A stretch of DNA of 64,000 nucleotides from a virus. Numbering within the stretch: position 1 is the first letter of the stretch; the number at the start of each line of letters is the position of its first letter. Where the stretch lies: IMG/VR virus record IMGVR_UViG_3300035698_018280, positions 32,001-96,000 of that record; one strand, given 5' to 3'. Shown here one piece after another: positions 35,584 through 56,700 of the stretch. Under the pieces are notes generated by a model, which searched no databases, had not been told where the DNA came from, and saw only the letters and a program-made list of their open reading frames with translations. The translations under genes and the position numbers were made by a program.

Positions 35584-36934
35584 GGTTAACGTCGTACCTA
35601 AACGTTATGCCTCTTTTATCATGTATTCCGAAAATCTTCTGCTCTGCCCTTGTTCCGGGTAGACAGTTTTTCAATGAATAGACATCTGAGCCTACAAAAG
35701 AACCATTCATAAGACATTTACCATTGCTGCTAGTGATTTCAGATGCGTTATGAAAGTGGCCAGCCAATGTGTAGTGAGCATGATCATTGACGAAGCCAGC
35801 CATTTTTCGTTCAATTTCCAAGAATGAAGCAATAGGAGGGTTCTTGCCTTTGGCGTCATCTCCATGCATCATCAGGAACTTATGATTTCTGATTTCTGCC
35901 ATATGCCACCATGATTTAGGAACATGGAACTTGATACGAGGATTGTTACGAAATTCTTGTTCTAAGAATAAGTAAACAACTCTGTCCCAGTTGCTATAGT
36001 CTTTCTCAGCGCCGCTCTTGGCAACTCGCCCATGGTTTCCTCGAATACCATAGAACTCAATTTCTTCAAATATCGTTAGCCAATACCAGATAGCATCAGA
36101 TAACGATCTCATACCAATAATGACCTGTTCCATGATTGGCGTACCAATATAAACAGGAGACCATGCGCCAACATCGTTCATACCATCAACAACATCGCCG
36201 AGACTAAAGATGTGCAATTTAGGGATTTTGTAAAGATGCGAATGAATCTCGTAGATATCAGCAACCGCATATTTGAGATTAGAAAGTCGTTGCTCATACA
36301 TCTTGATATTATACTGAGAAATACCGCCAGTTTCTTCAAGCGAATGCTCATGGCCGATATGAAGATCACTCAACATAAGCCCCATATCTTCAGGACAGCT
36401 TTGATATTTCTCTCTCCTAGGCTTCCATTTAGACAGAGGAGCCCTGGGTAGTCTGTCTGCGGCTTCTGCGAGAGCATCCCCAATAGAGTCCGATCGCATT
36501 CTCCAACGGTCCAGAGACCTGTTGACGTTGTTCTCAGTCTTAGTCTTGAATGTATCCAACGCACGTTTATGAGCCCTGGATTTCATACTGTTTGCATATG
36601 GTTTTTGAGACCAATCTGTTTTACCATAAACATCTCGGCAAGAGTTATACGCTCTTCCAAGAGTACGGGAAATTAATGAATACGGCAAATTATCAAGACG
36701 ACTCTCGAAAAGATACTGAAGTTCATCTTCTTCCCATGGCGAGGAAGATTTTACAGGAGTCAAATCATCATTGATTTCTCCATTATTAAATGCATCCCAA
36801 TTAAACTCTTTGAATTTACATTGAACAGAATCTAAGCTACGTCCTAGGGAACGTGCGATTGTTGTCCAATCGTGATTTGCTTTGCGTTTGTCGTGCAGTG
36901 CTGCTAGTTCTTCGAGTGTCCATTTGCGAGCCAT
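35477..36934 (-). CDS. calcineurin-like metallophosphoesterase/nuclease with two N-terminal Myb/SANT-like repeats
   Basis: SDLHIG, LGDVVDG, GNHGR, HGD, GHFH; N-terminal WTLEE..L..W..IARSLGRS..SV and WEEDE..L..Y..ISRTLGRA..SC. Confidence 0.85.
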   Translation of the reverse strand: MARKWTLEELAALHDKRKANHDWTTIARSLGRSLDSVQCKFKEFNWDAFNNGEINDDLTPVKSSSPWEEDELQYLFESRLDNLPYSLISRTLGRAYNSCRDVYGKTDWSQKPYANSMKSRAHKRALDTFKTKTENNVNRSLDRWRMRSDSIGDALAEAADRLPRAPLSKWKPRREKYQSCPEDMGLMLSDLHIGHEHSLEETGGISQYNIKMYEQRLSNLKYAVADIYEIHSHLYKIPKLHIFSLGDVVDGMNDVGAWSPVYIGTPIMEQVIIGMRSLSDAIWYWLTIFEEIEFYGIRGNHGRVAKSGAEKDYSNWDRVVYLFLEQEFRNNPRIKFHVPKSWWHMAEIRNHKFLMMHGDDAKGKNPPIASFLEIERKMAGFVNDHAHYTLAGHFHNASEITSSNGKCLMNGSFVGSDVYSLKNCLPGTRAEQKIFGIHDKRGITFRYDVNLDADRSPKESKNDASTKVGSTISYGQEMPSLRKTN

Positions 36935-37682
36935 AATTACTCCCGAGCCTTTGTTCTTTTAGCTGAGACTTAAATTCTCGCCAAACTATCATGTGGGCTC
37001 TTATCATTTCTTCTTTGTGTTTTCCAGTCATCCCATCAGGGTTTGTTCTGTATCTAATGAGCGGTTTCTTTATATTTGCCATTTTGCGACCTGCGAGAAT
37101 AGCTCTACACCAAAGGTCCATGTCTGGAACCGTGTATATCTCAGTTCTCGTCGTATATCCGCCTAGCTCAAGAAAATCCTCTCGTAGAAACATTGTTGTC
37201 GGATCTATCATTGGATTCTGACATCGGTACAATTGACCTACGATTTGTTCATGCGATGTCTTGGGGTAGTCCATTTCGCCCAACGGCTCGCTTTCTAAAT
37301 CAATTTTTAGAGCATGTCCGCCAACACAAAATACATCAGGATTAGATTCAAGAAATTCAAACTGCTCACTCAGTCTGTATGGAAGACTAATATCGTCCCC
37401 ATCATGGATAGCAATGTACTTTCCTTTGGCCATACGAATTGCCTGGTTCCTCCGACGAGGAATCCTTATGTTATCACTGTCGTCTATTAGACGAACGGAA
37501 ACCCCAGCTAGACACGCAAAATCGTAATCGCACACGATATCCCAAGTCAAATCTGTAGAACCATCATTCATAATTAACCATTCAAAATCTCTAAATTTAT
37601 TCTGTTGACAAATAGATTCAAGAGATTCTTTTATATACTTTTCACAATTGTAAACAGGTGTAATTATGCTAACTGATGGCAC
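36837..37682 (-). CDS. GT2-family glycosyltransferase
   Basis: SIITPVYN, NDGSTD, RNQAI, HDGDD; GTG start at 37682 after AAAGGAG. Confidence 0.9.
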   Translation of the reverse strand: MPSVSIITPVYNCEKYIKESLESICQQNKFRDFEWLIMNDGSTDLTWDIVCDYDFACLAGVSVRLIDDSDNIRIPRRRNQAIRMAKGKYIAIHDGDDISLPYRLSEQFEFLESNPDVFCVGGHALKIDLESEPLGEMDYPKTSHEQIVGQLYRCQNPMIDPTTMFLREDFLELGGYTTRTEIYTVPDMDLWCRAILAGRKMANIKKPLIRYRTNPDGMTGKHKEEMIRAHMIVWREFKSQLKEQRLGSNYGSQMDTRRTSSTARQTQSKSRLDNNRTFPRT

Positions 37683-38433
37683 TGCAATTCTCCTTTGCCC
37701 AGTTATATAGCTCAATATCATATCTATTAAAATCTTCTAATAAATCATTGACTTTTTTACTGTAATCTTCTGGATTGCGAGATAAATGACTTTTAGTGAT
37801 GCCGCAAAAATAATCTGAATCAGGAATTCTAACTTTATCACCGAACTTTTCACCTACAGTAATTTCTCCAAAATCATCAAGCGAATCCGTATATCCTATC
37901 TTTATGTTTTGAAGATTGATTTTAGCCCTTTCATAAGCTTCATCCATTGGATATCCTTCTCTCCAACACCCTGCGCCGAATGGCTCTCTTATAGCTTTAT
38001 TCTCCATGAAATCATTAACATAAATATCTGGAAGAACACCGCTAAGTTGTCTTGTTAGAAAATTGAAGTTCTTATTTAATTCTCTATAGCGATCAAGCTG
38101 TTTTATAATAGATTCTTCGCTACAGGATTCTTTGGTCTTAAAATATCTTTTGTTATAGAATGCTAAAATAGATAGCATTCGTATTTTAGGTTCCCTCAAA
38201 ATTGTGTAATATGAAGCATCTAAGCCAAAACATTCGTGAAATCCATACGGAAGATGACCATGTATCCAACAATCATCAACAACATCTAAAGGCATACCTT
38301 TTGCTTTTCTCCATGCATATTTACGAAAAGTAACCGGAACTAATGTCTTGTTATGATCCAGTAACAGATTTATAAACGAATGACCACCTGTCTTCGGTAT
38401 ATGTAGGAATATATTAACTTTCATTATTGGCAT
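37669..38433 (-). CDS. PAPS-dependent sulfotransferase (Sulfotransfer_2-like)
   Basis: 5'-PSB motif FLHIPKTGGHS, GHLPYG, 3'-PB motif LREP..RMLS, C-terminal NRYDIELY; start at 38424 or 38433. Confidence 0.85.
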   Translation of the reverse strand: MPIMKVNIFLHIPKTGGHSFINLLLDHNKTLVPVTFRKYAWRKAKGMPLDVVDDCWIHGHLPYGFHECFGLDASYYTILREPKIRMLSILAFYNKRYFKTKESCSEESIIKQLDRYRELNKNFNFLTRQLSGVLPDIYVNDFMENKAIREPFGAGCWREGYPMDEAYERAKINLQNIKIGYTDSLDDFGEITVGEKFGDKVRIPDSDYFCGITKSHLSRNPEDYSKKVNDLLEDFNRYDIELYNWAKENCSAIS

Positions 38434-39538
38434 GTTCTGCTGTGAAGACTTCATGATATTTTTTACTTATATTATTCCAGTCAAATTCCTTGAGAATCTG
38501 CTGATATCCATCTTCTGCTTTTTCTTTACGAAGTTTTTCGCTTGACAACAACTCATCTAAATGCTGAGCAAAACTCTCATGCATAACGCTGTTATACAAC
38601 CATCGACCGCCTGATTTCTTCGCCCCATTAACTATAAAGCCTCCGTCTAATTGATCCATGTTGCCAACATTCAATGAAACCCATGGCAGCTTACTCGCCA
38701 TAGCTTCAAGAGCAACAAGCGGCGCAACCTCAACCTGAGAAGGAAATGCAAAGATATCCGCATCTAAAAACGCCTGAATTGTGTCATCGCGAGGAATATC
38801 AATCAAAAGCTTACTATCAAAGCTGGCTTTCTTCAATGCTTCTTTATGGCGATGCCTCATAACATTTGCTGGTTGAAAATTAACACTGGTGCAAATAAAA
38901 ACTGCTACAAAGTCTTTGCCTCTAGCTCTAAGCTTTTTAAGAACATGCATTAGATGTTCTTGGCCTTTTCCTGGGAAGAAATTAGAAACGCACAAAATCA
39001 TTGGTTTATCAGGAATACGGTACTTCTTTCTAAATGAAAATCCCTTATCCTGAAACTCTGTCAAATCAATAGCATTAGGAATAACATTGACCTCAGCACC
39101 CATCGCTCGGCATGTCTGATAATCTAGGTAATTGTTTGAATGGGTTATTATCGAGAAGTGTTTATGATTTCTGCGAAAAACTCTACCTACATCTCCGTGG
39201 CTGCGCATAAAATTCATGCCAACCATCGCTATGCTCTTCGAGCAATTAATCTTATCGGCTCGACGAATGGTTGTCTCCCATTGCATAAATGAATCGCTAT
39301 AAACCATATAATGATCTGGTTTTAGACCATTTATCTGCCTTATATAAGCATCTGGGTCTCGATTGACAGGATGTATTTTGACGCCATTATGCTCTATAGT
39401 TTTATTGGCAAAGTGAGTCAAGACATGGCAATCCATGCCAAAATCTTTTGTCATAGATTCTGTTATCTGTTGAACTACTTTTTCCGATCCGCCTATATGA
39501 TGCGGAGCCGAATGATTAACGCCTATTACAAGTCGCAT
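38414..39538 (-). CDS. GT4-family (GT-B) glycosyltransferase
   Basis: GGSE, VIPNAID, KGQEHL, FPSQVEVAPLVALEAMAS, FDWNNI. Confidence 0.9.
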   Translation of the reverse strand: MRLVIGVNHSAPHHIGGSEKVVQQITESMTKDFGMDCHVLTHFANKTIEHNGVKIHPVNRDPDAYIRQINGLKPDHYMVYSDSFMQWETTIRRADKINCSKSIAMVGMNFMRSHGDVGRVFRRNHKHFSIITHSNNYLDYQTCRAMGAEVNVIPNAIDLTEFQDKGFSFRKKYRIPDKPMILCVSNFFPGKGQEHLMHVLKKLRARGKDFVAVFICTSVNFQPANVMRHRHKEALKKASFDSKLLIDIPRDDTIQAFLDADIFAFPSQVEVAPLVALEAMASKLPWVSLNVGNMDQLDGGFIVNGAKKSGGRWLYNSVMHESFAQHLDELLSSEKLRKEKAEDGYQQILKEFDWNNISKKYHEVFTAEHANNES

Positions 39539-39562
39539 ATGTTCTTCGCCTTTTCAAATCTT

Positions 39563-40300
39563 TTATTGCAAGACGGGTACAGGATGCTGCCTCATTGGTC
39601 GAACCTTTTTACCTCGCCACTTCTCAAGAAACTTCGTTCTACTACGCTTAAACAATTCGAGACGACGAGGATTTTTTCCTAAAGTCTGATGCGGCAAATG
39701 AATAACTCTCGCTTTATAATTCCAACATAATTTATAGCCAGCATCCATCGCTCTGAAACAAAAATCAGGATCTTCATAGTAACAAGGATTAAATCGTTTA
39801 TCAAACATCCCTAGCTTGATAGGGATTTCGCCCTTCATCAACATGCCTCCACATCCGACATATGTCCAGGGTTCATTGGGCCTCTTACATTGGTGAACCG
39901 GAATAAAATCATTACTCATTAACCAGGCTTCTACTCCTACAACATCTGCATTTGATTGTTCTAGAACATCATGATGGTGCTGAAGCCAGTCAGATTGTAC
40001 ATACTGATCATTATCTAAAAAGTTAATATATTCAGGCCTATCAGCTAGAGATTGATAAATATTAAAACCATGATTTCGACCGCCTATAACTCCTAAATTA
40101 TTGTCATTGCAGGCTAAAGTAATATCGTCTCGCTCAGAAGCAAGATCACCGAGATATTCAACGGAACCATCTGTGGAACCATTATCAATCATAATAACAT
40201 GAAAATTTTCTGTATGGGCAAAAAGATGAGTGAAGAACTTTTTTGTTACTTCAAGCCCATTATAGTTCAGTACAACGATAGCGGTTTTGGGATGGCTCAT
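39563..40300 (-). CDS. GT2-family glycosyltransferase
   Basis: IVVLNYN, IDNGSTDGS, NLG..GGRN, FLDND, YYEDPDFCFR. Confidence 0.9.
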   Translation of the reverse strand: MSHPKTAIVVLNYNGLEVTKKFFTHLFAHTENFHVIMIDNGSTDGSVEYLGDLASERDDITLACNDNNLGVIGGRNHGFNIYQSLADRPEYINFLDNDQYVQSDWLQHHHDVLEQSNADVVGVEAWLMSNDFIPVHQCKRPNEPWTYVGCGGMLMKGEIPIKLGMFDKRFNPCYYEDPDFCFRAMDAGYKLCWNYKARVIHLPHQTLGKNPRRLELFKRSRTKFLEKWRGKKVRPMRQHPVPVLQ

Positions 40301-40314
40301 ATCATCCTATCGTC

Positions 40315-43300
40315 TTATTGGACTGTTGCGGTATTACTTCTTACAGTTATCCCAACTGAAACGCCATCAAACGGTATAACTTCCGCATACCATAGATCGC
40401 CGCTAGCAGTCAATAAATTAGAAACAAGCGACTGATTTGCTACCGAAGCAACTTCTTCAAATAAATCTGCGCCTGATGATTTACGGAACCAACGAATTGA
40501 ACTTTCGTCAGATTGTTCGGTATTTCCCGTGTCAATGTCTTGATCAAAGAACGACCATACAACCGTTAGGTTAGAATTTGAAGTTGGATTTTCAGGTTCA
40601 ACAATAACATTAGTAACAACCGGAGGAGCATTTTGAACAGTAACTACAGGACTCGTTACTGGATCTCCAATAGTGTTACCAGTTGCAGGTCGAACTTCAA
40701 CCTGAATATCATTTCCAATGATTAGAGCAACTACGCTAGTTGATGTTTGTAATTCACCTGGTATAAGTTCATTGTTGTTGAATCCGTTTGTGTTTCCATT
40801 TAGGTTTCCTCGCTTAAACTCAACGCCATTGATATACCAAATGATAGTAGAAACATCTTCTCCTCCATCATCAAAGAAATCGAAATCAGCGAAAGCTATT
40901 GTAGCTGTTGTAACTTCAGTTTGAACTACGCCGCTCGAAGTTCTTCCATTGACAAGAAGAGTTGTAATGAACGGAGGAGCGGCCTCAACTGTAACGGATG
41001 AAGAACGAACAAGAGTTCCAAGAACTTTACCATCGCTCGGTTTAACCGTAAAGTAAATGATGTCACCAACATTCAACAAACTTTCATTTCGTTCACGAGC
41101 AAATTGCTCAGCAGTTGTGCTAGAAGGAACATCCTCTGGCTGAAAACTAAAGCCAAAGGTCCATAGGGGGTCTGCGAAATTAGTAATATCATTCCATTCT
41201 CGTAATCCTCTTAAAAACTCTATTTCAACTCCATTGACATACCATCGTATATCTGTTTTATCAAGATCTTCTATATCTAGATTGAGATCAAAGAACCTAT
41301 AACTTGCAGAAATCTTGTTATAGATAGTCGGAATAGTCGGGAATATTTTAAGATCCAATGCTTCTGGTGGCCGCTCGGCCAATGGCGGCGGCAAGAAAAC
41401 GTTGCTGTTAAAGAAGTAACCAACGCCCTCAATAGCAATAGGATCTGTAGCAAACTTGTTCGTTATTTTTAGACCTATTCTTAATTTTCCAGCATTCTCA
41501 ACGTCTATTATAAACGAGTCAACCTGTTTTGTTTTGAAGACAATCAGTCCATTGCGAGGATAAGATTTGTAATCAGTTTCCTCAATGATGGTCTTATCAG
41601 TTTTCTTAACAACAACTCTGGAAGTTGGGTTCCAGCGTCCATACTTAGCCGAGAAAACAAAGCCATCAATGTTCTCCAGCGGCTCATTGAGAGCATCGTC
41701 AGTTTGTTGTGTTCGAATAGGCAGGTATATCTTTCCATACCTGTCAGCGGCGGGTTGAGATCCGCTCTGGTAGTCATCCCAATTATAAGAATCGCTTGTT
41801 GCTGCTCCTACTTCAATAAAGCTATTAGGTGGAGTATTCGCTCTGATAGCGACAGCGATCTGTTGAGCGCTGAACTCCGGAGTATCACAATCAATATAAA
41901 CAAAACTGTCCTTTGGAACGCTATAGTTGATATTTATATCTGTCAGCGCAGGGATACCTGGCGTAGCAACATCTTCATACACTTCTTCAACGGAAGCGCT
42001 AAGACCGCTCAAGATAGTTGCTCGGAATCTAAAGTAGCGACCGTTAAGTCTGAAGAACTCGACTTCTGCATCAGGATTGAATTTATCACTAAATTCCCCG
42101 AAGTTAAAACCATCATCGCTTGCTGAGACTTGCCAGTTACCGTCTGTGTTATCAAATAAATCGTAATCAAGAGAGATGCTATGAACAACAGCGTTTACGC
42201 CAAGGTCAATAGTCCTTTCATAAACTCCGTAGCCAATAGAACCAGCAACTCTTCCTAACGTATTATTTAGAATTTCATCAAGGAAAGCAGCATCAAGAAC
42301 AGTCTGCGATTGACCGCCTGTAGTCCTTGCTATTTCTTCAAGCGAGTCTGTATCTGTACGAGAAACAAGCGCTGATAATGTAACTGGGAATACGATCGAG
42401 AAGTTATTGATAACAACTGGCGTCTGCCCAAAACCATCAATAGCCTGAATATCTTCAATCGCTTCGGCCTGAGTAGCAAACGATAGATTTTCTTCATTGT
42501 CAGTATGCGAGTAGATTGTTTTCGCTCGACCATCTGCATTATCATTAAGCAGATCTTCTGTTATTTCAGTTAATCCATCAAAATACGGAGACGCTCCAAA
42601 AGGTATAGCATTATCTAAGCGAGCAATGACGTTAAGAGCTTCTGACGCTGTTCCTACATTACCGCTTAGGTGGCGAACTATTTGAGGAATCCATTCAATG
42701 TCCGAAAAATATTGAATAGATGGGCTCTGAAGCTGAGACGTTTGTGAAGGGTTGATATTGAATATCAAGCTACTGTCATCCAGCCCGTCATCAATAGGTT
42801 GATCTGGATTGCTGCTGCTGTCATCATCGCCAGGATCGTCATCATCGCCTGGAAGATCCTTGCTAGCAGAATATTCTCGGCAACCTTCAAACTCGACGAT
42901 ATCGACACCGCCCCCATCATCTCCGCTATCGCCATCGTCTCCCGTATCCCCGTCATCATCGTCGCCATCGTCGCCCGTATCGTCGTCTGGATCTTCAACT
43001 ATATCAGGATCTTCATTGTCCTCAATATCAACTACGGTCTGTCCGTAGAAAAAATCATCAACAACAGTAATCTGAATTCTAATCTTATATGGCCTACGAG
43101 TTGTCCCTTCCTTGATAAGTAAGATATCATCCTGCCCGCCCTGTCCTTCGCCTGTAACTGTTTCTGAAATTCCAAGCTTGTTTTTAATATCATCAATCTT
43201 TCGAAGAATATCATCAGCCCTTGGCAACATTGTTGTTGTACCAAATCCGCTCGATATTTCAAAATCATTACTACTAAATACAACAGGGTAAACAAACGCT

Positions 43301-46300
43301 TGTCGGGAAATAGTATCAGATGCCGACTGCTGTCCCTGGTCGCTGCCGCTAGAAGATTCCTCTGAACCTTCGTCTGTGTTATCTTCGTTACCTGGAAACA
43401 GCAAAAATCCTCGAACTAAAATCCTGATGTCCTTCGGAGGAATTTCGCCAGCATCATCTTTGAGTTCAATGTCTATTGCAACAGACTGACGGCCATCGAG
43501 CCTAGCATTAGCTGGCTCTGCCTTAGCGAGGATCTGAAGGAATCCAGGAGGACGACCGCTTGTTATTCCGCCAGCTACATAGATGAACTGATCGCCGTCT
43601 GACGCAATCCCAAACGATTGTCGTCCAACCGGGTTCTCTGTTAGATTTTGTAAAGATAGTCTAGGGACTGTTCCGCTTTCACCAATAAGTTCAAATCTTC
43701 TTAATGTAGGTGATTTTTTATTAGCGCCTCCGAGGAAGTAAACTCCTTCATATGCTCCAGTTTCAATAGCTGCTGTGCCGCCCTTGTATCTAGGATGAGG
43801 AATATCTCCAAACGAATTATCGTGAACCGTAATAGAGTTTGGATGTAACGGATCAAAAGAAACCGTATCTGTAGGGAATTCAAGTTCCTGATTCTCCCCT
43901 GATCCAATCAATATGGCTCCGCCAAGAATAACTATCGACGGCGTAGATACTGCAAAGTCATCAATAAAAACAAACGGAGATATACGATGATACAATTCAT
44001 AGTCCTGATCAACAAACGAATCGGAATACGTCCAGCTATCTGTCATAATATCATATATCAAAATACGATCATTGAAAAATCTAATTCCTCCCTGACTATC
44101 GATTTCAGTTAAACCTCCGACAATATAAATAGAATCTCCATACTTGACAGCAGAGCTAAGAGCGGTTCCATATTCTGTGCCCGAAATCTCTGGCATTGAA
44201 GAACCGACAGTCCATGTATCAGTAAAGACATCGTAAATTTCTAACTTATTAGAAACATGTAGATCTCCATTTTCTGAAGACAAACCTCCAAAGACATATA
44301 TCTTGCCAGCATCTTCAACAGCTACATGATGCATACGAGGATTTGGAATTGGGGCAAACTCGGTCCATTCATCTGTATCAATAAGATACTGTTCATTACG
44401 TCCAGAGATGCTAGTCCCATTAACCCCTCCGATCGCATATGTAGCATAGCCATAAGGCGTTATTGTATAACTGAGAGAAAGGGCTCCTCTCGGGAAGTTC
44501 ATAGCAGCCTTGTCTTCCCAAGCATCAGTTGATGCATCATAAATGCTCATCTTTGCATCAAAGACGTTATTTACAATTCCTTTTTCATCCGTATCATCGT
44601 CGTCAGTATCTTGATCCTGCTGCTCGGAATCATAAACAATAGTCAAACAAGTGGTCATATTTCGTTCAACATCGCCCCTCTTATCATATTGAGTTTTTGC
44701 TTGAACCTGTGCACTAAAGCTTTCAACAGGGTTCAATGGCAATATAGTAAAGGACGCATAGGATTTGACACCTCCGCCAAGAAACTCATCCTCCTGTTGG
44801 AATGTAAAGACAACTGATTCAGTGACTACAACCTTAGATGGATTTTCTCCTGCGATAGTTAAGAAGACAGGAGTTCCGTTTGGAACTGGCTTGCCAGAAA
44901 ATGAAACCTCAAGAATAAACGTATGTCGAGATTGTCCATCAACTAGCAAATCTTCTATAGGCTCATTATCTCTACGAACATCAACAATGCGGATTTTGAG
45001 AGGTTCTTTTAATCGAAGGACTGTTGGTGGGATTCCGTTTTCGTAGCCGCCGCCGCCGTTAAGAAAGCGAGTCTCTCCATCAAGAATAACTGTTGTTCTT
45101 CCTATTATCGATCTATCAAAAGGTTCTTCTTTCAATCCTCCAGGAAGTTCTATTGCAGAACAAATATTACTTAATGAACCGGGTGAATCGGTATTATCGT
45201 TCTTCTGCGGCGGGCCAATAAATCTATTTATTCTTAGATAGACATCAGTTGTATCATTCTCTTCTGATAATGGAAGAGATACGAACGCAGTCTCTTTATT
45301 AGCATCTAAGAAAACGAATTCATCAAGATAAGGATCTAATTCAATTGAAAGATCTTCTCCATAAAGTATTTCAAACGCATCGCCTGTTTCTATTTCAATA
45401 AGCTGTCCAAAGTTCAAAATAAACAACGTTCCGCTAAATGCGCTCGCGCACGATCTAAACTCAGTTGAAAATGGAATCGATGCAGTATTGGGGTCTCTAG
45501 CAATCTTTAGATTTTCAAAATCATATCCATCGGCCCACATTTCATTAATGAGACGACGAAAACTCATATGGAAACGAGAGCCAAAACTGCCAGGAACAGC
45601 CTGCGGATACAGAGTTAAAGGCCTTTCCTCAAAAGCATTCAATCCGTCATAAGTTATAGATGCTTTGAGAGCATACATTTCAGGGACGAGAGCAGGACCA
45701 CCTCTTTCTGGTCCCAAATCAACAACTGTCCATGTAACCCCGCAAGCAGGACCAAAGAAAATCTTTCGGGCAGTATTATTTCGAATGAATGAAAATACTC
45801 CTGATGCAATCGGTACATTATCAAGAGAATAAAATGGTCTATCTCGACCACCAAGACCTTTCTGCAGGTTCCATTTACAAATCTCATTATCAGGAATACG
45901 AGTTTTACGAGGATTTCTTGAATCAGGACTATCTGGATCGATCAAGTAACAATGAGCAAATTCCTCAACAATATCAATACAGTCTGGATCGGGGGCGCTA
46001 ACAGTAAGCTCGACTCGCAAGATATTTTCGAATGCTATGTAAAGGCTTTTACGACCAACAAATCCGTTGAATGTAGCTTGAGCAAACAGCATAACTCCCT
46101 GCGGCCTATTGGGAGCCAACAATGGTATATCTGCAAAACTAATCTCTGTAAGATTACCTTCCCCGTCGTCCTCAAGCCCAAGACTCAGGTCCAAAGTTGT
46201 TGACGGAGGAAGAACTTCACGGCTCTTACGGTCAGAGAATCCTGGATCAAATGGTACTGGCGGATCAGCATCAGGATCATCGCAAATTGGATCTGAAGCC

Positions 46301-49300
46301 TCATGAACAGCAACAAAAGCTCGACCGCCAATTCTTACTGGCTCATCTCTGTACTGTACTTTTATTCTAGCTACAAACGGAGTTGTTTTACGAATATATG
46401 TTCCATCAAAGTCTTTCTCGTGATTAGGATTAAATCCGGTGCCGCCAGAAGCAATAAAATCAACATCAAACAATGGAACTTCTTGCTTACAAAGATGAGT
46501 AATACGATCTCTACCAAAGTTGATAAGTTCCATCTTAAACGGATTTTTCATCGTTATAGAAATAGGTAGCGATGTAAAACGAAACGCATCTTTACCTGGA
46601 TCTTCTTTATCAGGTACAGAAAAAATAATCTTGATCGAAAGAGACAATGTACTGATAGCAGATATAATATTGAAATCAGGGGCCATGCGAACAATGCCCT
46701 TAAGAATTCCGTTGCCTTGCGGAGTAGATGATAAAATAAACGTCTCTTCAGGCGTTGGTCTGAATGAAGAGCGATCAATCGTCTCGCCAAATACATCCTC
46801 TGCTAATTGAGACGAACTTGTTGATGCTATCGCCTCGAAACGAAGACGAGAATCATCTGCCAGAGGCGCTCCAAACTCATCTGTTATCTGCGCAAAAAGA
46901 GCTATTCGTTGATCGAACCATGCCTCGATGTTCTTCTGGAAGCGGATAGGCTGCTCCCATTGAAGACTAAGAGCATTCTCGTTTACCAATTCGTAGCGAA
47001 GCTTCCTTACCTCAAGAAGGGGTATACCAGTTTCATCAGCAGTCTCAAGAGGTATGCCTTGAAAATAGAATGGAATAGATTTATAGCCATACCTATCCGT
47101 AGAAACAATAGCATAAAAAGCAACAGTATTATTACTTATGTTTCGATGAACAAACTCAGTTTGACTATCTGTTCCAGAGAAAATACGTTCCGCATCGCTT
47201 GATACAATTCCATTATCATCAAAAACAGGTAATGAGTCTTCAGAGTAATATATTTCAGTCTGTGTATGCCTGTCGTCAGTGGCAGACAGGTTCCATTTAA
47301 TATAATTCTTTCTATTTCCAACTTGTTGTGTAACATTTGTTATTTGCAATAACGCCGGCGACGGAGGATCAATTGCATTAGCCCGGTCAGTGGCATTGGT
47401 TTGATCTTCAGTTGAAAAAGCTGGTATTGTTACTGACAAAACAGGAGAGTCAGCCCAGTTGCTATAGTTGCCAACCGTGTTGCGAGAAAATATTTTATAA
47501 TGGTAAACTCTGCCATGAACATAATCCTGTTGCAAACTGAAAACAAATGCGCCAGATGAAACAGTGTCATCGAATACGATAGTACCATCATTTTCATGGA
47601 ATGGTTCTAATCCATAACCATTGAATTCTCTAATTAGATCGCCGTTGTCATCGACTTCTCCAGTAAACGAGTAATCAACGCCGCCTGCAGCTTGTTTCTC
47701 AAGAATACGCACTCCGCCGCCTTCAAAATCAAAGTTATCAGGAACAGAGTAGTTTAGTAGCAATAACCTATCGCCGTTGTCATCGACTTTTTCTCGAAAA
47801 TCTTCCGGAAGAACAGCGGCAGCAGAAATGAACTCAGCAGATTTTACTTCATTATAAACAGCAACATCGGAAACTTTTCCAAATAACGATTGCGATAAAC
47901 TTCCATTATCAATCGATCCTACTTGAAACACCTTATTAGAAGTTCCATCTTCAAAAGGATTAAGATCGCCTGTCGGAACGGATGACGTTAGAACTTCTCC
48001 ATTCAGATAGAATAGAACCGTATCAGTATCGAAATCAACAGTAACAGCAATATGAATCCACTCATCATAAGGAATGGTTTCAGATGCTACTACAAGCTTT
48101 ATTGAAGGGAACTTCGTTGCTAATAAAATAGACTGACTTGAAGTAACGCTTATCCAGTATGAAACATCATTGGTAACAGTATCAAATCTGGAAAATAATG
48201 TAGATCCTCCAGCACTTTCCTGTATATAGAACCAGCCTGAAAATGTCATCTGGTTATTTACTAAATTGTTTTCATTATCATCTACGCTAAAACTATCTCT
48301 AACTGTATCAAACGTTTCGCCGCTCATTCTAGCGCCGCTACGACCGCTTGGAACATCTACAGGATTTAGCCAAATTGGATCAGAGTCATCTCCCGCCCAG
48401 GTTATATGTCTTTGATTCTGAGTAAAGTCATATGCAATTCCGCCTATTCCCTCATCAAAGTGCCAAAGACCAAGAGCATTATCTTCTACCAATGGACCGC
48501 TGCCCGTCATGATATTAGCAGTAAACTGACCTATGCCAGTTGGAATATCTCGAATTCGGGGAGTTGCTTGAACTTCAACCCCCTGGCTAAAAGTTCCATT
48601 TTCATCAAATGTGAAAACCTTATAGAATAGCTCGGTATCTTCGGCAAGATTATCATCAAAAGTTCGATCAAAAAATCCTTCTTGAACAATGTCCCCATCA
48701 ATAGCATTGGTTGGGAATCCCCCAGCTTTACGGACAATTCTAATGCCAGCATAACCGCTTTCTTGATCTGAAAAGAATGACGAAGCAACAGCGTCAGTAT
48801 CGCTTGTATCAATCGAATCATCTTCAACAACAGCAAAGAAATTAACCCTAATCGGAGTACCTTCAAATGAATAGACATTCCATTTGACATCGCCAGGATA
48901 AGTAGAGTCCACCCTATTGATCATGCGACGACTTAGTTCAAGCCTAGTGTTCTCGCTATCATTCCAAGACATCGAACCGCTCTGATCGACAAGCAAACTG
49001 ACAACTCGATCTGGAAGATTGAGTTCAACTTTTTCTTCGCCATTATCATCATTTGGAACAACGCTAGTATTTAATAATACAGGATCTCCTAATGGATCAT
49101 CAAAATCATTAACGATAAGCGTCTGCGCTTCGGAAGGAGGCGTATTTATTTTGCAATCAGCAACGTCAAAAGAATCTCGGAATGACCACGCTTGTATAGC
49201 CAAGCTGTCGTTACTAACAAGAGTCCAAAGGCCAGTATCAGGATCAAACGTAACTGTAGGAGTCAAAAAAGTAGTTGGCTCATAAGGATCAAGATCAGCT

Positions 49301-50109
49301 TTTGCCAAATCCCAGATAACATAATGGTCGTCAGTCTTCTCAGAAGAAAATAGTAAGAATCCCAAAGAAGTATCATCATCAACAGATATAGGAGATTGTC
49401 CTGGAAGAACCCCTATATCAAAATTGTACCAATCATCGATCGTAATATGATCTTTAGTATTTTTTAGATCATATATAGAAAGCTCTGTAGTCGGTAATAG
49501 ATTACTATCTAGTTCAAAAACCTTACTATGAATAGTCACATATGGAGGAGTACCGAAGCCAGGATTATTTACATCCCAACCTACAATATCAAAATCACCT
49601 CGACTTAATGCAATCGCATCTATATAAACTCCATCTCCAACATCATTACTGGCTGATATGCCAAGAACATGTTCTGCATTATCTGGTATAACAAAAGGAG
49701 AAAAAAGATCAGCATCTATCCACGCCCAAATATTGGCAGGTAAGGAAAACGAACCAGTTTCAATAATCTGGTTATCATCGAGATATATTTTTACATTTAT
49801 ATTGCTGGACGAGATATTTCTAACTCTTACCCAAATATTGATCTTGTCTGATTTTTCAGCCTTCACGGGAAATTCAATAATAGGCTGAGCTTCGCCAATC
49901 AAACTATCGGATCTCATGCACCCGGTTCCAGAGAAATCAACAACCTGATTATCGAAAACTACAGGATTAGTTCCGTGCGAAACGCTTGCGGCGTTAGCAG
50001 CATTGATCATAAGAACTTCAGAATCGTCTTCAGGCACGACAAAGAAATCTGCAGGCGATGAGCCAACAGGTCTTAAATAAGTTGATACTTTTGTTGGAAA
50101 ACCTGCCAT
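40315..50109 (-). CDS. giant modular putative virion/adhesion protein (CBM-like, discontinuous vWA, FN3, LamG, Ig-like, Kelch propeller)
   Basis: 3264 aa; LVDQSGS MIDAS motif; LamG (GLWHFDEG, WIHIAVT, FYLNG); six Kelch blades (YAIGG, YVFGG, YIVGG, VILGG, YFLGG, YVAGG); C-terminal repeats ending in V.P.DG; no signal peptide visible. Confidence 0.85.
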   Translation of the reverse strand: MAGFPTKVSTYLRPVGSSPADFFVVPEDDSEVLMINAANAASVSHGTNPVVFDNQVVDFSGTGCMRSDSLIGEAQPIIEFPVKAEKSDKINIWVRVRNISSSNINVKIYLDDNQIIETGSFSLPANIWAWIDADLFSPFVIPDNAEHVLGISASNDVGDGVYIDAIALSRGDFDIVGWDVNNPGFGTPPYVTIHSKVFELDSNLLPTTELSIYDLKNTKDHITIDDWYNFDIGVLPGQSPISVDDDTSLGFLLFSSEKTDDHYVIWDLAKADLDPYEPTTFLTPTVTFDPDTGLWTLVSNDSLAIQAWSFRDSFDVADCKINTPPSEAQTLIVNDFDDPLGDPVLLNTSVVPNDDNGEEKVELNLPDRVVSLLVDQSGSMSWNDSENTRLELSRRMINRVDSTYPGDVKWNVYSFEGTPIRVNFFAVVEDDSIDTSDTDAVASSFFSDQESGYAGIRIVRKAGGFPTNAIDGDIVQEGFFDRTFDDNLAEDTELFYKVFTFDENGTFSQGVEVQATPRIRDIPTGIGQFTANIMTGSGPLVEDNALGLWHFDEGIGGIAYDFTQNQRHITWAGDDSDPIWLNPVDVPSGRSGARMSGETFDTVRDSFSVDDNENNLVNNQMTFSGWFYIQESAGGSTLFSRFDTVTNDVSYWISVTSSQSILLATKFPSIKLVVASETIPYDEWIHIAVTVDFDTDTVLFYLNGEVLTSSVPTGDLNPFEDGTSNKVFQVGSIDNGSLSQSLFGKVSDVAVYNEVKSAEFISAAAVLPEDFREKVDDNGDRLLLLNYSVPDNFDFEGGGVRILEKQAAGGVDYSFTGEVDDNGDLIREFNGYGLEPFHENDGTIVFDDTVSSGAFVFSLQQDYVHGRVYHYKIFSRNTVGNYSNWADSPVLSVTIPAFSTEDQTNATDRANAIDPPSPALLQITNVTQQVGNRKNYIKWNLSATDDRHTQTEIYYSEDSLPVFDDNGIVSSDAERIFSGTDSQTEFVHRNISNNTVAFYAIVSTDRYGYKSIPFYFQGIPLETADETGIPLLEVRKLRYELVNENALSLQWEQPIRFQKNIEAWFDQRIALFAQITDEFGAPLADDSRLRFEAIASTSSSQLAEDVFGETIDRSSFRPTPEETFILSSTPQGNGILKGIVRMAPDFNIISAISTLSLSIKIIFSVPDKEDPGKDAFRFTSLPISITMKNPFKMELINFGRDRITHLCKQEVPLFDVDFIASGGTGFNPNHEKDFDGTYIRKTTPFVARIKVQYRDEPVRIGGRAFVAVHEASDPICDDPDADPPVPFDPGFSDRKSREVLPPSTTLDLSLGLEDDGEGNLTEISFADIPLLAPNRPQGVMLFAQATFNGFVGRKSLYIAFENILRVELTVSAPDPDCIDIVEEFAHCYLIDPDSPDSRNPRKTRIPDNEICKWNLQKGLGGRDRPFYSLDNVPIASGVFSFIRNNTARKIFFGPACGVTWTVVDLGPERGGPALVPEMYALKASITYDGLNAFEERPLTLYPQAVPGSFGSRFHMSFRRLINEMWADGYDFENLKIARDPNTASIPFSTEFRSCASAFSGTLFILNFGQLIEIETGDAFEILYGEDLSIELDPYLDEFVFLDANKETAFVSLPLSEENDTTDVYLRINRFIGPPQKNDNTDSPGSLSNICSAIELPGGLKEEPFDRSIIGRTTVILDGETRFLNGGGGYENGIPPTVLRLKEPLKIRIVDVRRDNEPIEDLLVDGQSRHTFILEVSFSGKPVPNGTPVFLTIAGENPSKVVVTESVVFTFQQEDEFLGGGVKSYASFTILPLNPVESFSAQVQAKTQYDKRGDVERNMTTCLTIVYDSEQQDQDTDDDDTDEKGIVNNVFDAKMSIYDASTDAWEDKAAMNFPRGALSLSYTITPYGYATYAIGGVNGTSISGRNEQYLIDTDEWTEFAPIPNPRMHHVAVEDAGKIYVFGGLSSENGDLHVSNKLEIYDVFTDTWTVGSSMPEISGTEYGTALSSAVKYGDSIYIVGGLTEIDSQGGIRFFNDRILIYDIMTDSWTYSDSFVDQDYELYHRISPFVFIDDFAVSTPSIVILGGAILIGSGENQELEFPTDTVSFDPLHPNSITVHDNSFGDIPHPRYKGGTAAIETGAYEGVYFLGGANKKSPTLRRFELIGESGTVPRLSLQNLTENPVGRQSFGIASDGDQFIYVAGGITSGRPPGFLQILAKAEPANARLDGRQSVAIDIELKDDAGEIPPKDIRILVRGFLLFPGNEDNTDEGSEESSSGSDQGQQSASDTISRQAFVYPVVFSSNDFEISSGFGTTTMLPRADDILRKIDDIKNKLGISETVTGEGQGGQDDILLIKEGTTRRPYKIRIQITVVDDFFYGQTVVDIEDNEDPDIVEDPDDDTGDDGDDDDGDTGDDGDSGDDGGGVDIVEFEGCREYSASKDLPGDDDDPGDDDSSSNPDQPIDDGLDDSSLIFNINPSQTSQLQSPSIQYFSDIEWIPQIVRHLSGNVGTASEALNVIARLDNAIPFGASPYFDGLTEITEDLLNDNADGRAKTIYSHTDNEENLSFATQAEAIEDIQAIDGFGQTPVVINNFSIVFPVTLSALVSRTDTDSLEEIARTTGGQSQTVLDAAFLDEILNNTLGRVAGSIGYGVYERTIDLGVNAVVHSISLDYDLFDNTDGNWQVSASDDGFNFGEFSDKFNPDAEVEFFRLNGRYFRFRATILSGLSASVEEVYEDVATPGIPALTDININYSVPKDSFVYIDCDTPEFSAQQIAVAIRANTPPNSFIEVGAATSDSYNWDDYQSGSQPAADRYGKIYLPIRTQQTDDALNEPLENIDGFVFSAKYGRWNPTSRVVVKKTDKTIIEETDYKSYPRNGLIVFKTKQVDSFIIDVENAGKLRIGLKITNKFATDPIAIEGVGYFFNSNVFLPPPLAERPPEALDLKIFPTIPTIYNKISASYRFFDLNLDIEDLDKTDIRWYVNGVEIEFLRGLREWNDITNFADPLWTFGFSFQPEDVPSSTTAEQFARERNESLLNVGDIIYFTVKPSDGKVLGTLVRSSSVTVEAAPPFITTLLVNGRTSSGVVQTEVTTATIAFADFDFFDDGGEDVSTIIWYINGVEFKRGNLNGNTNGFNNNELIPGELQTSTSVVALIIGNDIQVEVRPATGNTIGDPVTSPVVTVQNAPPVVTNVIVEPENPTSNSNLTVVWSFFDQDIDTGNTEQSDESSIRWFRKSSGADLFEEVASVANQSLVSNLLTASGDLWYAEVIPFDGVSVGITVRSNTATVQ
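42820..42995 (-). repeat. low-complexity Asp/Gly coding repeat (DDGD-like)
   Basis: Encodes DPDDDTGDDGDDDDGDTGDDGDSGDDGGG and PGDDDDPGDDD. Confidence 0.7.
47638..47789. repeat. 20-bp exact direct repeat within the giant gene
   Basis: ATCGCCGTTGTCATCGACTT at 47638 and 47770; both copies encode VDDNGD, 44 codons apart. Confidence 0.75.
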
Positions 50110-53100: not shown

Positions 53101-53710
53101 AGATTGCACCTGGCAGATCAAAGAATCCCCATACCGCATTCGGCCTAGCTTCTTTGCAAGCATTGAGAGTCTTTAGAAAGAAATCTTTAGCAAGAGAGTT
53201 CCACTCTTCTCTCATAAAGTTTTCAAGAACATTCTCGCCTTCATCATATAGAGACTGTATAGCTACGGGGTTATCAAAGTACCACCAGTTATAAAAGTTT
53301 TCTTTGTAATCGAAGTCTGCAGGATTCATCAGATTAGACTGTGAAGCCTGTAAATTAAAACCTTCGTCAAAAAAGAATCCTGAACCGCTGTCGTAATTGC
53401 TCCAATCAAAACTCGGATGAAAACGACTGTAATCAATAATAGCAAGACCGTCATAATCAGCCGTTATTTTACGCTGAGCGTCATCTACGACCTTGGCAAT
53501 ATGAGATTCTAAGAGATCTGGATTATCAAGGAATTCATGAAGACCAGCATATGGATAGCGACCAAGCTCAGAAGGCCGATAGATAGCTGCGTCAGTCATA
53601 ATATCACGAGGATATGTGATAATATCCTGCGGATCTATAAACGAAAATCTACCAAACTGGCCTCTTTCGTAGGCAGTATGAAAGCGAAATCTTTCAAACC
53701 TAGTTGTCAT
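50111..53710 (-). CDS. putative virion protein: GH56 hyaluronidase-like domain, second TIM-barrel-like domain, C-terminal beta-propeller
   Basis: LGRYPY...HIAKV.DD...YDGLAIIDYSRFHP, FFLKTL..CK..RPNAVWGFFDLP, INWLWDEVGVLLPSFY match the GH56 pattern; G-rich linker; propeller repeats (GGQGGV, GSDGIY, TDAGLY). Confidence 0.75.
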   Translation of the reverse strand: MTTRFERFRFHTAYERGQFGRFSFIDPQDIITYPRDIMTDAAIYRPSELGRYPYAGLHEFLDNPDLLESHIAKVVDDAQRKITADYDGLAIIDYSRFHPSFDWSNYDSGSGFFFDEGFNLQASQSNLMNPADFDYKENFYNWWYFDNPVAIQSLYDEGENVLENFMREEWNSLAKDFFLKTLNACKEARPNAVWGFFDLPGAIYADSNLNNGGPGVLGYGRSELIDIDNADQSLNTGQSINNSINWLWDEVGVLLPSFYSQRYTIGNSLFPSPERFENSIFDNSEWITSNSKENLRLGKKHNKEFMPQIWHVYKTEGAAPYHRRPLNNVNWNHVLRNPASIGAFGYVIFDSLENEGRDRQINDQLDDIIEPTLRELIDINAFSSITGIEFDPDVRKPIPVRQDEFIDPIADPILLFGEGETSIISDIDRRSGRVYRLWSDEFLSQTGEVSGELISWWKVAEGVNNLISRLNTDYEQGFRRFMLWLPAGSNVGGIFSPNHWFTMSEDRRNEIKTKLGGWIDSHTEVSVSIYAGYYINEDLDRINIHDVLDGGVPYDIRAPIHAEYFRRNWGPWFDDVGIDMLVFHQTSPIAVRNHITRTAFTQWMLGRKIAGGGIPLDSDGLPDVEINDIPWILPYDDLDDLQGLLQWKFDSTTTEIGVILTADMSLTSDDIRTIASLGIVVWGTPGWYDSVLLEPNLGDPPAEGGGGGGGSGSDGDGNNDGGVGFEDENDASRGRSINNPSTGTGPNEADIANSGTNLIDTIDGFGLQRFVGGFGGAVGDKFPEDYSSYDVVAIANSIDGIFSFAAPLSKYTRVEIDVINVAFKNTGFPHWVVEDSFEWINSGMPSHMSQVYHSNIVNFGIDLAKTNPGLQEACAPIYQGRFLVACNQEWYDNFNSTVDFDLDQDYGNRGLSLPYPSAVIHLGDLGQVWVGGQGGVLSIDTDTLVVSKIVIDSRRELFIKDFYLDTFSNKLYVLDERNLYVYDMLTGEVTKDSGLGLPDILSRVAVMFSSNLVIGGSDGIYTRRQTQDEWQRVAETSGPVSTLIVPDAAFAVANNEVWLSTEGFTWTLIGSISSKNVNELTKHRSEILIATDAGLYVDGGNFYAESVNTSLVNFLGDADDSRSAIINDVTSNFTTAVATLADGRYLVWDDSGFLIVDVTEFDTIHQVLFVNDDIWLFSYDEFKIRGDSTIRRLVTGKTI

Positions 53711-56700
53711 TAGCCTCCTCCAGAATCATCATTGTCTTCGTCAACCTGATCTCCGATATCCCCAAATGTATCATCCTCTCCTAGTTCAGTGCCAAATCCT
53801 CCGATGCCAGCTTCGCCAGTGTAAAGCTCATTATAGATACCAAGCGAAACGACTCCTTGGCTTTCAAAATCCTTGGTATCAGCTAAAAGAACAACATTGA
53901 ATTCAGGAAGAATAAAAGGTACAGTTTTTTGTATAGCGCCAGGAATATCTTCTGTAATAATATTTTCATTACTATCGACAAATATTGGATTACCATTACC
54001 GTCAAGTTCTGGCACGACTCTAGCATCAATGTATATCTGAGAGGTAAATCTCTCTGTCTTATATATTAACTGTCGAACATTTTCCTTGTTAAATGCTGTC
54101 AACTGAGGATTATCTTCATCATCGCTCAAAGCCAAAATAGCAACTTGTTGAATACCTAAATTATCAAATGCAATCTGAGCGCCTACTGCATGAGCATTCC
54201 TATCATGGAATGTAGGCCAAATTATTGTCGAAACAGCAATTGCTGGTTTTTCAGCTATGCTTCCTCTGTTGATTCGAAAACCATCAATATAAGCGAATAC
54301 CTTAGCCGCATAATCAGCACCAGTCCATCCCCCAAATTTGGCCTTATAATTCTGATACTGATTAGCTACAGTAACTATCGCTTCAACATCTATTTTGATA
54401 TCAAATGTAACAAATTTTCTCAAACGATTAGTATCAGTTGTATATCTAAAACCAATTCTTTGTTCTATACCATTGATATAGACAGTAGGAATTACCCCGA
54501 GAATAATTTCACTTTGAAGAGACATTTTTCCAGGTGACTCCGAAATAAATAGTCTCTCCTCTGTTCCTACAAACAACTTGTCATCAATAAGATTCATCGA
54601 TGAGGGAGGAGAGAGGTAGGCTCCTCTATTCATTTGCGCAAAAGTAAAACCGAACTCAACAGCAGCATCATTCTCAATATCTGCTTCTATATTTGAAACA
54701 AAAACTCCAAGATCAGTTGTTATGTAAATACGATCCCGCCATACGAATAGTTTACGAGCAATTTCAACATCATCAAGTATAGTGATACGTTGAAACTCGT
54801 CTTCGCCCAATTTTCGTCGCCATACCATGAAGCGAGTTAGCGCATATATAGTATCGCCGTCCTTGAAGAAAGCGAAGATATTTCGTTGTTCCGGGAATTC
54901 ATCGCTGAAGTCCCATCTAACACCAGCATTCGGAGTTTCAAATATACCAAGCTCATTACTGACTATAACACGATCTCTCAGATCATCGTAGAACATAGCA
55001 AACGACTCAGTTGATCTTGGGCCGAAGATGGGAGTCTGCTCCCAAAAGAAAGAGCCTCGGCCAACATCTTTAACCAACTTGAATACGCCGATATCGGCAG
55101 AACAAAAAACCTGTCCGTTATTGTCTTCAACAATATCTCTGGCAACCTTAGCATTCTCCATGCCTCGAATTTCGTTCCATATACTAAAACCGCCTGCGGT
55201 TCCGCCGCCGGAGCCAAGAACTCCTCGGTTCGTCAGTGCAAAATAGAAATCATAAGTAGGCGAGTAAAACAGCTTAATGACTGGTGTAATCGGTGTAAAT
55301 CTTTTATCCCATGTCAGCCCAAAATCTTCGCTTGTATAGATACCATTACTTGTTGACGCCACAAGAATGTCGCCTTCTGATCCTTCTGCCAAAAGAACAT
55401 CATACCATGTAAGAGCTTGTCCAACTCTCTCAATTTCAGAATCTACAGGAGCAAATCTAAACCCATCATCAACCGCAAAGAAATCTTCTTGGATTGGTAA
55501 GAGGCGTTCCTTTATCCGTCCTTCATGATTGATTTCAGGAAGCTGAAACTCTTGAATAAGCCCATTAGAAACTTGTTGAGCGCTAGCCCCTTCAATTCTT
55601 TCGCGAGGTAAAGTATTCTGAACCTCAGTTAGATTGTCGAAAATAACAGATACCGTTGGAGGATCTTCAAACGGGAAAGATTCATCATCATCCGCAAAAA
55701 GACCGCCTCTCGTCAAACGAGTTTCAAACGTTATTCTGCCAATATCCTGATCAATGGTAAAGAAAATATCAAGATTTTCAGGACGTTCTCCATTTAAAAA
55801 TACAGTAAACGTTGTTGAATCTGTAAGATCTGTTACAGTAAAGTAATTCTGAAAATCATTTGTTGTCCAGTTAGTTATAACAAGAGTATCTGCAAGGTTA
55901 ATACGACGATCATCAATTTCAGTAAGATATTGATGCTTATGCGCCGCAATCCTAACTTGAGCTTCTTCCCGTATAGGATCTTCAAGGTCTTTGATGTTTC
56001 TAACATCTTCTAGATCAAATGTCATAACTCCGCTGTCTGTTACAACTTGTCCTATAAACAAAGCGCCAATAACAACCGCACTAGATTCAGTTACAAAAAG
56101 ATCAGCTTCATTACGGAATTTTCTAACAATATAATAATATACGCCGTCTGAATCAAGAACATCTTCATCAGTATAAGAAGTAACAGATGGAGCGACAGTA
56201 GCAATTCTCTCAAACGAGAATTTATTATCAAAAGATCGGAAAATTTCATAACCATCAAATTGACCAGCGGTAACATCCCATACCAAATCAACATCAACAG
56301 AATTTGAACCGCTAATAGTAGCAAGTAACCCTGATGGCTCAGGAAGGTCTCCTGTTCTCGATGGAGTCAATAGTACAAGGTTATAATCAAAGAACCCATC
56401 TTCAACCGGATTAAGAGATTCTCTCCCATAAATATCAATAGTCGTTACAAAATAAACATAGTTGATATCATTTTCAACTTCAAAATCATCAAACTCAAAT
56501 ACATCAGAACCGACAGTCTCGACAGCAACAAAATTGCTTGTAGAATAAAGTACCTGCTCTTCTGATCTATAAATTTTATAACCTGAAACAAATTCAAGAT
56601 TTGGTTTGTTCCACGCAATAGTTGCTTGCTTATCTCCCGCAACCCCAAACTGTTGGCTTGGAACAGGCGGCCTTGGAATATCGCTAAGATCAGGAATACT

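Follow-up and report, generated by a model that had tools for sequence, protein, structure and literature searches.

Distant parts of a huge adhesin-like phage protein are probably joined by a discontinuous von Willebrand factor A domain

Nested domain insertion has its textbook example in the integrin beta subunits (PSI/hybrid/beta-I), in which a domain resembling the von Willebrand factor A (vWA) domain is itself inserted, and the integrin beta-I domain also carries an extra (specificity-determining) loop of tens of residues in its b2-b3 region, near the face that bears the MIDAS (metal ion-dependent adhesion site). Whereas the integrin beta-I domain is an inserted guest, a vWA domain appears to be the host of a giant insertion in P0001, a giant multi-domain adhesin-like protein of 3,264 aa encoded in a 64,000-nucleotide stretch of viral DNA (positions 32,001 to 96,000 of IMG/VR virus record IMGVR_UViG_3300035698_018280; the whole stretch is referred to here as the window). 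We consider it very likely that residues 362-420 and 2472-2625 of P0001 (below, the N part and the C part) belong to one discontinuous vWA domain of the MIDAS type, and this domain probably joins distant parts of the protein. An earlier reading of the window, made from the sequence alone (the original prediction), had placed two vWA halves roughly 2,000 residues apart in a single chain. The listing of open reading frames (ORFs) agrees with this, as both segments lie within the same single uninterrupted ORF (window positions 40315..50109, minus strand, like all P0001 features given below), with 2,051 residues between them.

The closest described systems are adhesins in which a vWA domain holds smaller inserts. 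The pilus-tip adhesins RrgA (PDB 2WW8) and GBS104 have a vWA domain with a MIDAS and two inserted arms, which reach out from the core and give the binding face its shape (PMC7893114). P0001 is like these proteins in combining an adhesin vWA domain with a MIDAS and insertions, and the C-part profile has GBS104 as one of its best PDB matches. However, the arms of RrgA and GBS104 are short (hairpins, loops, and two helices) rather than arrays of whole domains, and their vWA chain is otherwise continuous (PMC7893114); two-gene forms, which the P0001 family has, are not described for them in that review. In PilY1, found at the tip of the type IV pilus, one small domain lies between b1 and a1 of the vWA domain (PMC11525922). 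PilY1 thereby shares with P0001 a whole domain placed inside the MIDAS vWA domain of a surface adhesin that also bears a beta-propeller (PMC11525922), but the two differ in the insertion site (b1/a1 versus the b2-b3 hairpin), in the guest (one small domain versus an array that includes a LamG domain and a Kelch propeller), and in origin (a bacterial pilus protein versus a phage protein). Domains are frequently inserted into other domains, but the published vWA inserts that we found were loops, arms, or one small domain (RrgA, GBS104; PilY1), and literature searches on discontinuous vWA domains, and on megaphages together with Kelch and vWA domains, returned nothing relevant. P0001 can be placed in a known category, in which the MIDAS-bearing vWA domain of an adhesin takes up inserts, but its guest is about 10 times larger than the host domain, both fused and two-gene forms exist, and the site is not that of PilY1. 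Across its family, a host domain of ~210 residues encloses a guest of 1,467-2,909 residues made up of whole domains, and the layout is conserved across ~100 protein clusters of large uncultured marine phages.

Compared with canonical vWA and integrin alpha-I MIDAS domains (PF00092 and PF13519; e.g., TRAP, PDB 4hqk/4f1j, and GBS104, 3tw0/3txa), P0001 retains the same order of elements, from the DxSxS motif at b1 through to L..IA..TGG. Its two parts are homologous to the matching halves of the canonical profiles, and its five metal-site positions are complete. It is distinguished from them by being non-contiguous, with 2,051 residues (1,467-2,909 in relatives) in the b2-b3 hairpin, and by the use of Ser for the MIDAS Thr and, mostly, of TDN for TDG.

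The N part (48850..49026), assigned from Pfam VWA_2, hhalign, and AlphaFold2 (AF2), comprises strand b1 (VSLLVD), the MIDAS DxSxS loop, helix a1, and strand b2 (VKWNVYSF). The C part (42235..42696), assigned from family profiles and co-folding, comprises b3, a2, the MIDAS Ser loop (FGASP), a3, b4 (KTIYSHTD), a4, b5 (PVVIN), a5 (LEEIARTTGG), b6, and the last helix. We drew the limits of both parts slightly wider than in the original prediction, and all of the motifs it had quoted are present where it put them: VSLLVDQSGSM at residues 370-380 (nt 49002-48970), VKWNVYSF at 408-415, EALNVIARL at 2490-2498, FGASPYFDGL at 2504-2513, AKTIYSHTDNEEN at 2529-2541, LEEIARTTGGQS at 2590-2601, and LDEIL at 2610-2614 (nt 42282-42268). 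The N half had been described as stopping after strand 2, and in Pfam, residues 372-420 cover positions 3-51 of the 107 in VWA_2 (E 2e-5 for the isolated piece; 25.6 bits). In a detail that departs from the original prediction, the break falls within the b2-b3 hairpin in the hhalign alignment, where b3 (PQIVRHL, residues 2475-2481) is contributed by the C part.

To compare joined and separate halves, the N and C parts of 74 full-length family members were concatenated, and the resulting query was aligned by local hhalign with contiguous bacterial vWA domains. Against a template of 10 vWA domains, the joined profile aligned end to end (99.05% probability, E 2.2e-18, score 122.7; 178 aligned columns, query columns 3-206 on template columns 16-203). 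The score was 74.2 for the N part alone (98.0%, E 2e-13, template columns 16-72) and 53.8 for the C part alone (94.7%, E 5.6e-8, template columns 99-203). Column-shuffled queries reached at most 0.7% probability and a score of at most 18, the best E value among column-shuffled controls was 0.34 versus 5.6e-8 for the true C-part profile, and when the order was swapped (C+N), just one half aligned. Read together, the two parts hence show whole-length homology to vWA domains (PF00092/PF13519).

The residues expected to coordinate the metal are divided between the two parts. The N part carries D375-x-S377-x-S379 (48973..48987), and the C part carries S2507 (42589..42591), which occupies the MIDAS Thr position (G-x-S/T loop) in alignments to the MIDAS Thr of TRAP and GBS104, and D2537 (42499..42501), the MIDAS Asp with which b4 ends (TD-N/G), which aligns to the TDG motif of vWA domains. 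Among 74 full-length representatives (50% identity clusters), D375, S379, and D2537 are present in 74/74, while S377 and S2507 are each present in 73/74, with a single Thr in the remaining protein. Across a wider set of 121 C parts, position 2507 is Ser in 119/121 and Thr in 2/121, and D2537 is found in 121/121. The five canonical MIDAS positions are kept across both sides of the insertion, and the DxSxS...T...D set is complete. That the downstream remainder supplies the G-[TS]-P and TD elements of the MIDAS, as had been proposed, is thus upheld by the conservation of S2507 and D2537 and their alignment to the Thr loop and TDG of vWA domains, and the site as a whole appears complete at the sequence level, its five positions being invariant or nearly so. 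Conservation of the MIDAS suggests a functional role for a divalent cation, perhaps together with an acidic ligand that the host surface or a further virion protein would supply, and we infer from these residues that the P0001 vWA domain may bind metal.

P0001 has 26 full-length homologues (25-71% identity). When all retrieved proteins were scanned with local hidden Markov models (HMMs) of the N and C parts, both parts were recognized in 96 proteins, the shortest of which has 2,236 aa. The gap between the parts in these proteins is 1,467-2,909 residues long (median 1,998), and none of the 96 has the parts closer together than 1,467 residues. The start of the N part ranges from residue 1 to residue 2173. 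In one subgroup (P0027, P0052, P0056, P0071, and P0074; 4,600-5,000 aa), ~2,000-2,170 extra residues precede the N part, indicating that its position in the protein is free, whereas it stays paired with a C part that follows after 1,700-2,000 residues. An N part of the family type (LVVDQSGSMTWND...), with an FN3-like start behind it, was also found at the end of a 289-kb contig (CAWBYW010000004.1; L002:1294-1806) from a metagenome-assembled genome (MAG) assigned to a "delta proteobacterium"; here a large phage may have been binned with a bacterium.

Structure prediction points in the same direction. When the N and C parts were entered as two chains, each with its own family alignment, the predicted complex had an interaction prediction score from aligned errors (ipSAE) of 0.85, versus 0.02 for the best of three controls; the 0.85 mark is reached by 58/80 solved complexes and by 2/110 mismatched pairs, although these counts are a rough guide as custom alignments were used. 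Runs agreed in at least 91% of contacts, with a predicted local distance difference test (pLDDT) score of at least 80 for the partners. The most confident contacts place b1 (370-373) parallel to b4 (2531-2533), and b2 (410-413) with residues 2478-2481 and the helix that follows. These predicted contacts are those of the vWA strand neighborhood and, together with the order of secondary structure, are, as far as predicted contacts go, compatible with the sheet order b3-b2-b1-b4-b5-b6 of a Rossmann-like alpha/beta fold. Beside unrelated partners, pLDDT was 46 for the C part and 34-40 for the N part. The AF2 model of the C part alone is likewise poor (mean pLDDT 48.7), and its order of helices and strands still fits the second part of a vWA domain. 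In an AF2 model of residues 1-540, the N part forms a strand (368-375), a helix (385-403), and a second strand (408-415) at pLDDT 54-71, and residues 415-429 fall below 50, while the flanking N-terminal beta-sandwiches are at ~90. The low values of the N part beside such neighbors indicate that, in this model, it is not completed into a whole domain by its local sequence. Local folding of each half into a separate domain, or a joined model without a vWA fold, would have spoken against the original prediction; instead, neither part is predicted to fold confidently alone, the joined profile aligns, and the parts are predicted to co-fold, so that the two together look, at the level of the model, like one vWA domain.

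Several observations nevertheless weigh against a single discontinuous domain. The N part, at 25.6 bits, falls just under the VWA_2 cut-off of 27, and Ser stands in place of the canonical MIDAS Thr at position 2507. The C part of the window, when searched alone against Pfam in three different cuts, gave no match, phmmer against the PDB returned a chance match only (E 1.9), a profile of 27 close homologues found nothing relevant in the PDB, and HMMER profiles of the C part gave no signal in a set of six contiguous vWA proteins and shuffles, meaning that the vWA identity of the window C part rests on family profiles and relatives. Five of the 10 domains in the hhalign template had been picked via the N-part motif of the family itself (DxSGSxxWN), and the score of the N part is inflated by this choice. 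For this reason, we repeated the test with five domains chosen by PF00092 only, whereupon the joined profile gave 96.5% probability (E 7.6e-10, score 66.5, columns 1-163), the N part alone still gave 90.8% (E 1.2e-6, score 38.4, columns 1-49), and the C part alone gave 70.7% (E 3.8e-5, score 35.7, columns 60-163). Lastly, the structure predictor may pass the two parts from its learned knowledge of the vWA fold, and co-folding is accordingly to be read as fold likeness rather than physical binding.

A half-domain cannot be expected to reach a Pfam cut-off set for whole domains, and the vWA signal of the C part arose only with profile-profile comparison and divergent relatives. Used in an exhaustive search, the HMM of the C part retrieved 166 cluster representatives at E <1e-3, and the same search matched a protein of 12 tandem canonical vWA domains (E 6.8e-10). 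When the 121 C parts were compared with Pfam (E up to 1), nine matched VWA_2 and five matched PF00092 (best E 1.8e-5 and 1.7e-5, respectively). For example, the C part of P0136 covers PF00092 positions 60-167 of 174 at 25.6 bits, and that of P0140 covers positions 60-166 at 25.1-25.4 bits, both above the cut-off of 23.8; P0140 also reaches 27.2 bits for VWA_2 in a scan of the whole protein (cut-off 27), and the C parts of both proteins fall on VWA_2 positions 51-106 of 107. P0140 is a full-length relative, aligning with P0001 by BLASTP over both flanks (3e-17 and 9e-12) but not over the middle. Compared with the PDB, the 121-sequence C-part profile placed the vWA domains of GBS104 and Plasmodium TRAP at the top (E 0.017-0.05), and in these alignments FGaS lies opposite the MIDAS Thr loop, and TDne opposite TDG. 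The profile of the N part (26 homologues) had the vWA proteins PilB, CLCA1, PTMP1, CobT, and BatB among its best PDB matches, with weak E values (0.3-1.4). As a warning for annotation, half-domains under Pfam cut-offs can be real.

The absence of a direct Pfam or PDB match for the window C part, and the position of the N part under the Pfam cut-off, might also be taken to mean that the two segments are functionally unrelated, the N part being what is left of a decayed vWA domain and the C part a separate alpha/beta domain with no more than a resemblance to a second vWA half. We regard this as very improbable. The profile positions covered by the two parts complement each other without overlap, and a remnant would not have retained five MIDAS positions invariant or nearly so. 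The parts are also found together in 96 proteins whose flanks and insert lengths differ greatly, and the folding confidence of each depends on the other.

The family also contains 77 proteins with the C part only. Their lengths peak at 1,000-1,099 aa (22 proteins) and 1,400-1,599 aa (17 proteins), and their start points fall into clusters 195-248, 338-360, and 691-796 residues ahead of the C part. For example, in a 65.6-kb contig that is syntenic with the window (L027), an ORF of 1,773 aa, which carries the N part at residues 344-401 (E 5e-22), is joined by a TAATG overlap to a 1,096-aa ORF (P0105) that encodes the Kelch propeller and the C part (555-698). L034 is cut near the same site, at around P0001 residue 1815-1850, with a GGAG motif and an ATG 13 nt past the stop. 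In three further contigs (L023, L024, and L025), the cut lies after the Kelch propeller, at around P0001 residue 2193. The next ATG in L023 follows two bases after the stop of a 2,039-aa ORF carrying the N part (residues 88-143), and in L024 and L025 there is a TAATG overlap at the cut, with the upstream ORF running off the contig end. The contigs of L034, L024, L025, P0082, P0085, and P0051 are too short to show an upstream N part. In L023 and L027, which are split at different sites, the vWA parts thus belong to two polypeptides from adjacent genes, as they probably do in the remaining split forms as well. Random truncation was considered as an origin of the short forms and rejected, given the clustered starts and the upstream ORFs (L023, L024/L025, L027, and L034) that end at or just before the start codon, and at least some of the C-part-only forms are real gene fissions. 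The family thereby displays a next evolutionary step, in which the gene is cut within the insert at two places and the vWA pieces reside on separate proteins. The gene for the C-terminal fragment in L023 (9427-9620) also has an in-frame TAA where P0063 has Tyr (KTAI*PVLF versus KTAVYPVLF), which might reflect a nonsense mutation, an error in sequencing, or read-through.

The split forms also bear on whether the domain closes within one chain. Judging from the natural two-gene forms, the parts can function on different polypeptides, and the same discontinuous vWA domain could be completed between chains in fused forms such as P0001, with the N part of one subunit meeting the C part of another in an oligomeric fiber (a domain swap), giving rings or head-to-tail chains rather than a loop closed within the chain. 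Phage fibers are commonly oligomers, and with ~2,050 residues between the parts, the sequence does not force pairing within the chain. The two-chain prediction fits both types of pairing alike, but the adjacency of the split genes, with overlapping stop and start codons, suggests 1:1 heterodimers rather than swapped polymers, and we consider completion between chains unlikely.

We give almost no credence to an artifact or a removable element, i.e., an assembly chimera, or an intein-like or mobile insert whose removal would leave a contiguous vWA domain. Inteins do occur in relatives, as seen in a faint Intein_splicing match in the AAA ATPase of L027. However, the insert is made up of conserved structural domains (LamG, Kelch, and FN3-like), its length varies smoothly from 1,467 to 2,909 aa, and split forms share the insert domains between two genes that end and start tightly together. 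An intein or mobile element was rejected because no intein or endonuclease match was found in the insert by Pfam, and a chimera was rejected because the same layout recurs in independent assemblies from many samples.

Returning to a single vWA domain closed within the chain, we propose the following arrangement. Residues 362-420 would provide b1, the DxSxS loop, a1, and b2, after which the chain would exit at the b2-b3 hairpin and pass through ~2,050 residues of adhesion-type (glycan-binding-type) modules. It would return at residue 2472 to provide b3, the loop with the Ser, the Asp of b4, and the rest of the strands and helices, such that the metal site would be complete only once both parts pack together. 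The b2-b3 hairpin lies on the face of the vWA domain that bears the metal site. The assembled domain would tie the base of the inserted array to the N-terminal carbohydrate-binding module (CBM)-like region and to the C-terminal region, thus acting as a small structural hub. In fused forms, the packing would close a loop, whereas in split forms, the same packing would join two separate polypeptides. We infer that the domain serves as a structural hub, or as a metal-binding clasp closing a giant loop. More tentatively, and on balance somewhat doubtfully, the vWA domain might be a natural split-domain fastener, whose fold and metal site would form only on the docking of two distant segments or of two separate giant proteins, and whose divalent-cation-dependent assembly or release would control the holding of a fiber array of more than 2,000 residues or its deployment upon host contact. 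If true, this would be a natural and evolutionarily repeated case of protein-fragment complementation, both in cis and in trans. The family offers a natural test bed for the folding of a Rossmann-like domain from distant or separate pieces, and suggests a compact, possibly metal-dependent heterodimerization module. It also marks a probable conserved structural hub in giant unannotated proteins of ~500-kb phages.

The insertion (residues 421-2471; 42697..48849) contains an FN3-like module, a LamG domain, further beta modules, a Kelch propeller, and an acidic low-complexity linker. FN3, LamG, and Kelch domains had been expected between the halves, and each was recovered, the latter two by Pfam and the first as an all-beta FN3-like module (residues 455-515) in the AF2 model. 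The LamG/concanavalin-like domain spans residues 608-761 (47827..48288; PF13385, Laminin_G_3, E 2.9e-15). The Kelch beta-propeller spans residues 1853-2031 by Pfam (44017..44553; PF24681, PF01344, and PF24981, E 1e-16 to 1e-17) and probably extends past these limits. Ahead of the N part is an N-terminal beta-sandwich region (residues 1-355; 49045..50109) with a CBM6/CBM35-like fold according to AF2 and Foldseek. Residues 1-270 were modeled at a pLDDT of ~90, and the best matches of the region in a Foldseek search of the PDB were CBM6, CBM35, and Cry-toxin domain III (E 1e-5 to 1e-6). P0024-P0026 and many other relatives are without this region, starting ~50-100 residues before the N part. The C-terminal region (residues 2626-3264; 40318..42234) always follows the C part and is conserved in both fused and split forms. 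The composition of P0001 suggests that its CBM-like, LamG, and Kelch modules bind glycans, and the protein may act as a virion-surface adhesin or fiber. PHROG matches were confined to the Kelch region, where one of the families is annotated as "virion structural protein."

The source record is 163,887 bp long and estimated to be 33% complete, and the large ORFs of the window are all on one strand. Upstream of the P0001 gene are three more giant ORFs, and downstream lies a cluster of glycosyltransferase genes, along with genes for an exonuclease, a helicase, and a methyltransferase. Homologues of P0001 occur on viral contigs of up to ~500 kb, which, together with the neighboring genes, shows that the gene is from a very large uncultured marine phage. 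A tblastn search with two segments of P0001 against 50,697 phage records found no homologue in an isolate phage; the only match in this search was a 65-residue FN3-like segment in Bacillus phages.

The ORF directly upstream of P0001 (50111-53710, minus strand; 1,199 aa) has a Pfam match to Glyco_hydro_56 (animal-type hyaluronidase), an unusual family in phage (E 1.2e-14, 54.5 bits; residues 162-375 on profile positions 143-326 of 335). The next two giant ORFs, also on the minus strand (53710-58293, 1,527 aa, and 58295-64000, >1,867 aa), have FN3, BNR-like, and Reg_prop-like matches, and the former matches the PHROG "central tail fiber J" via its FN3 repeats. On the other side, glycosyltransferase genes (GT2 and GT1/GT4) directly follow the giant gene in the window (36837-40300, minus strand) and in relatives (L024:3164-6859 and L027:13307-14233), in fused and split forms alike. 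This conserved link may possibly reflect glycosylation of the giant proteins.

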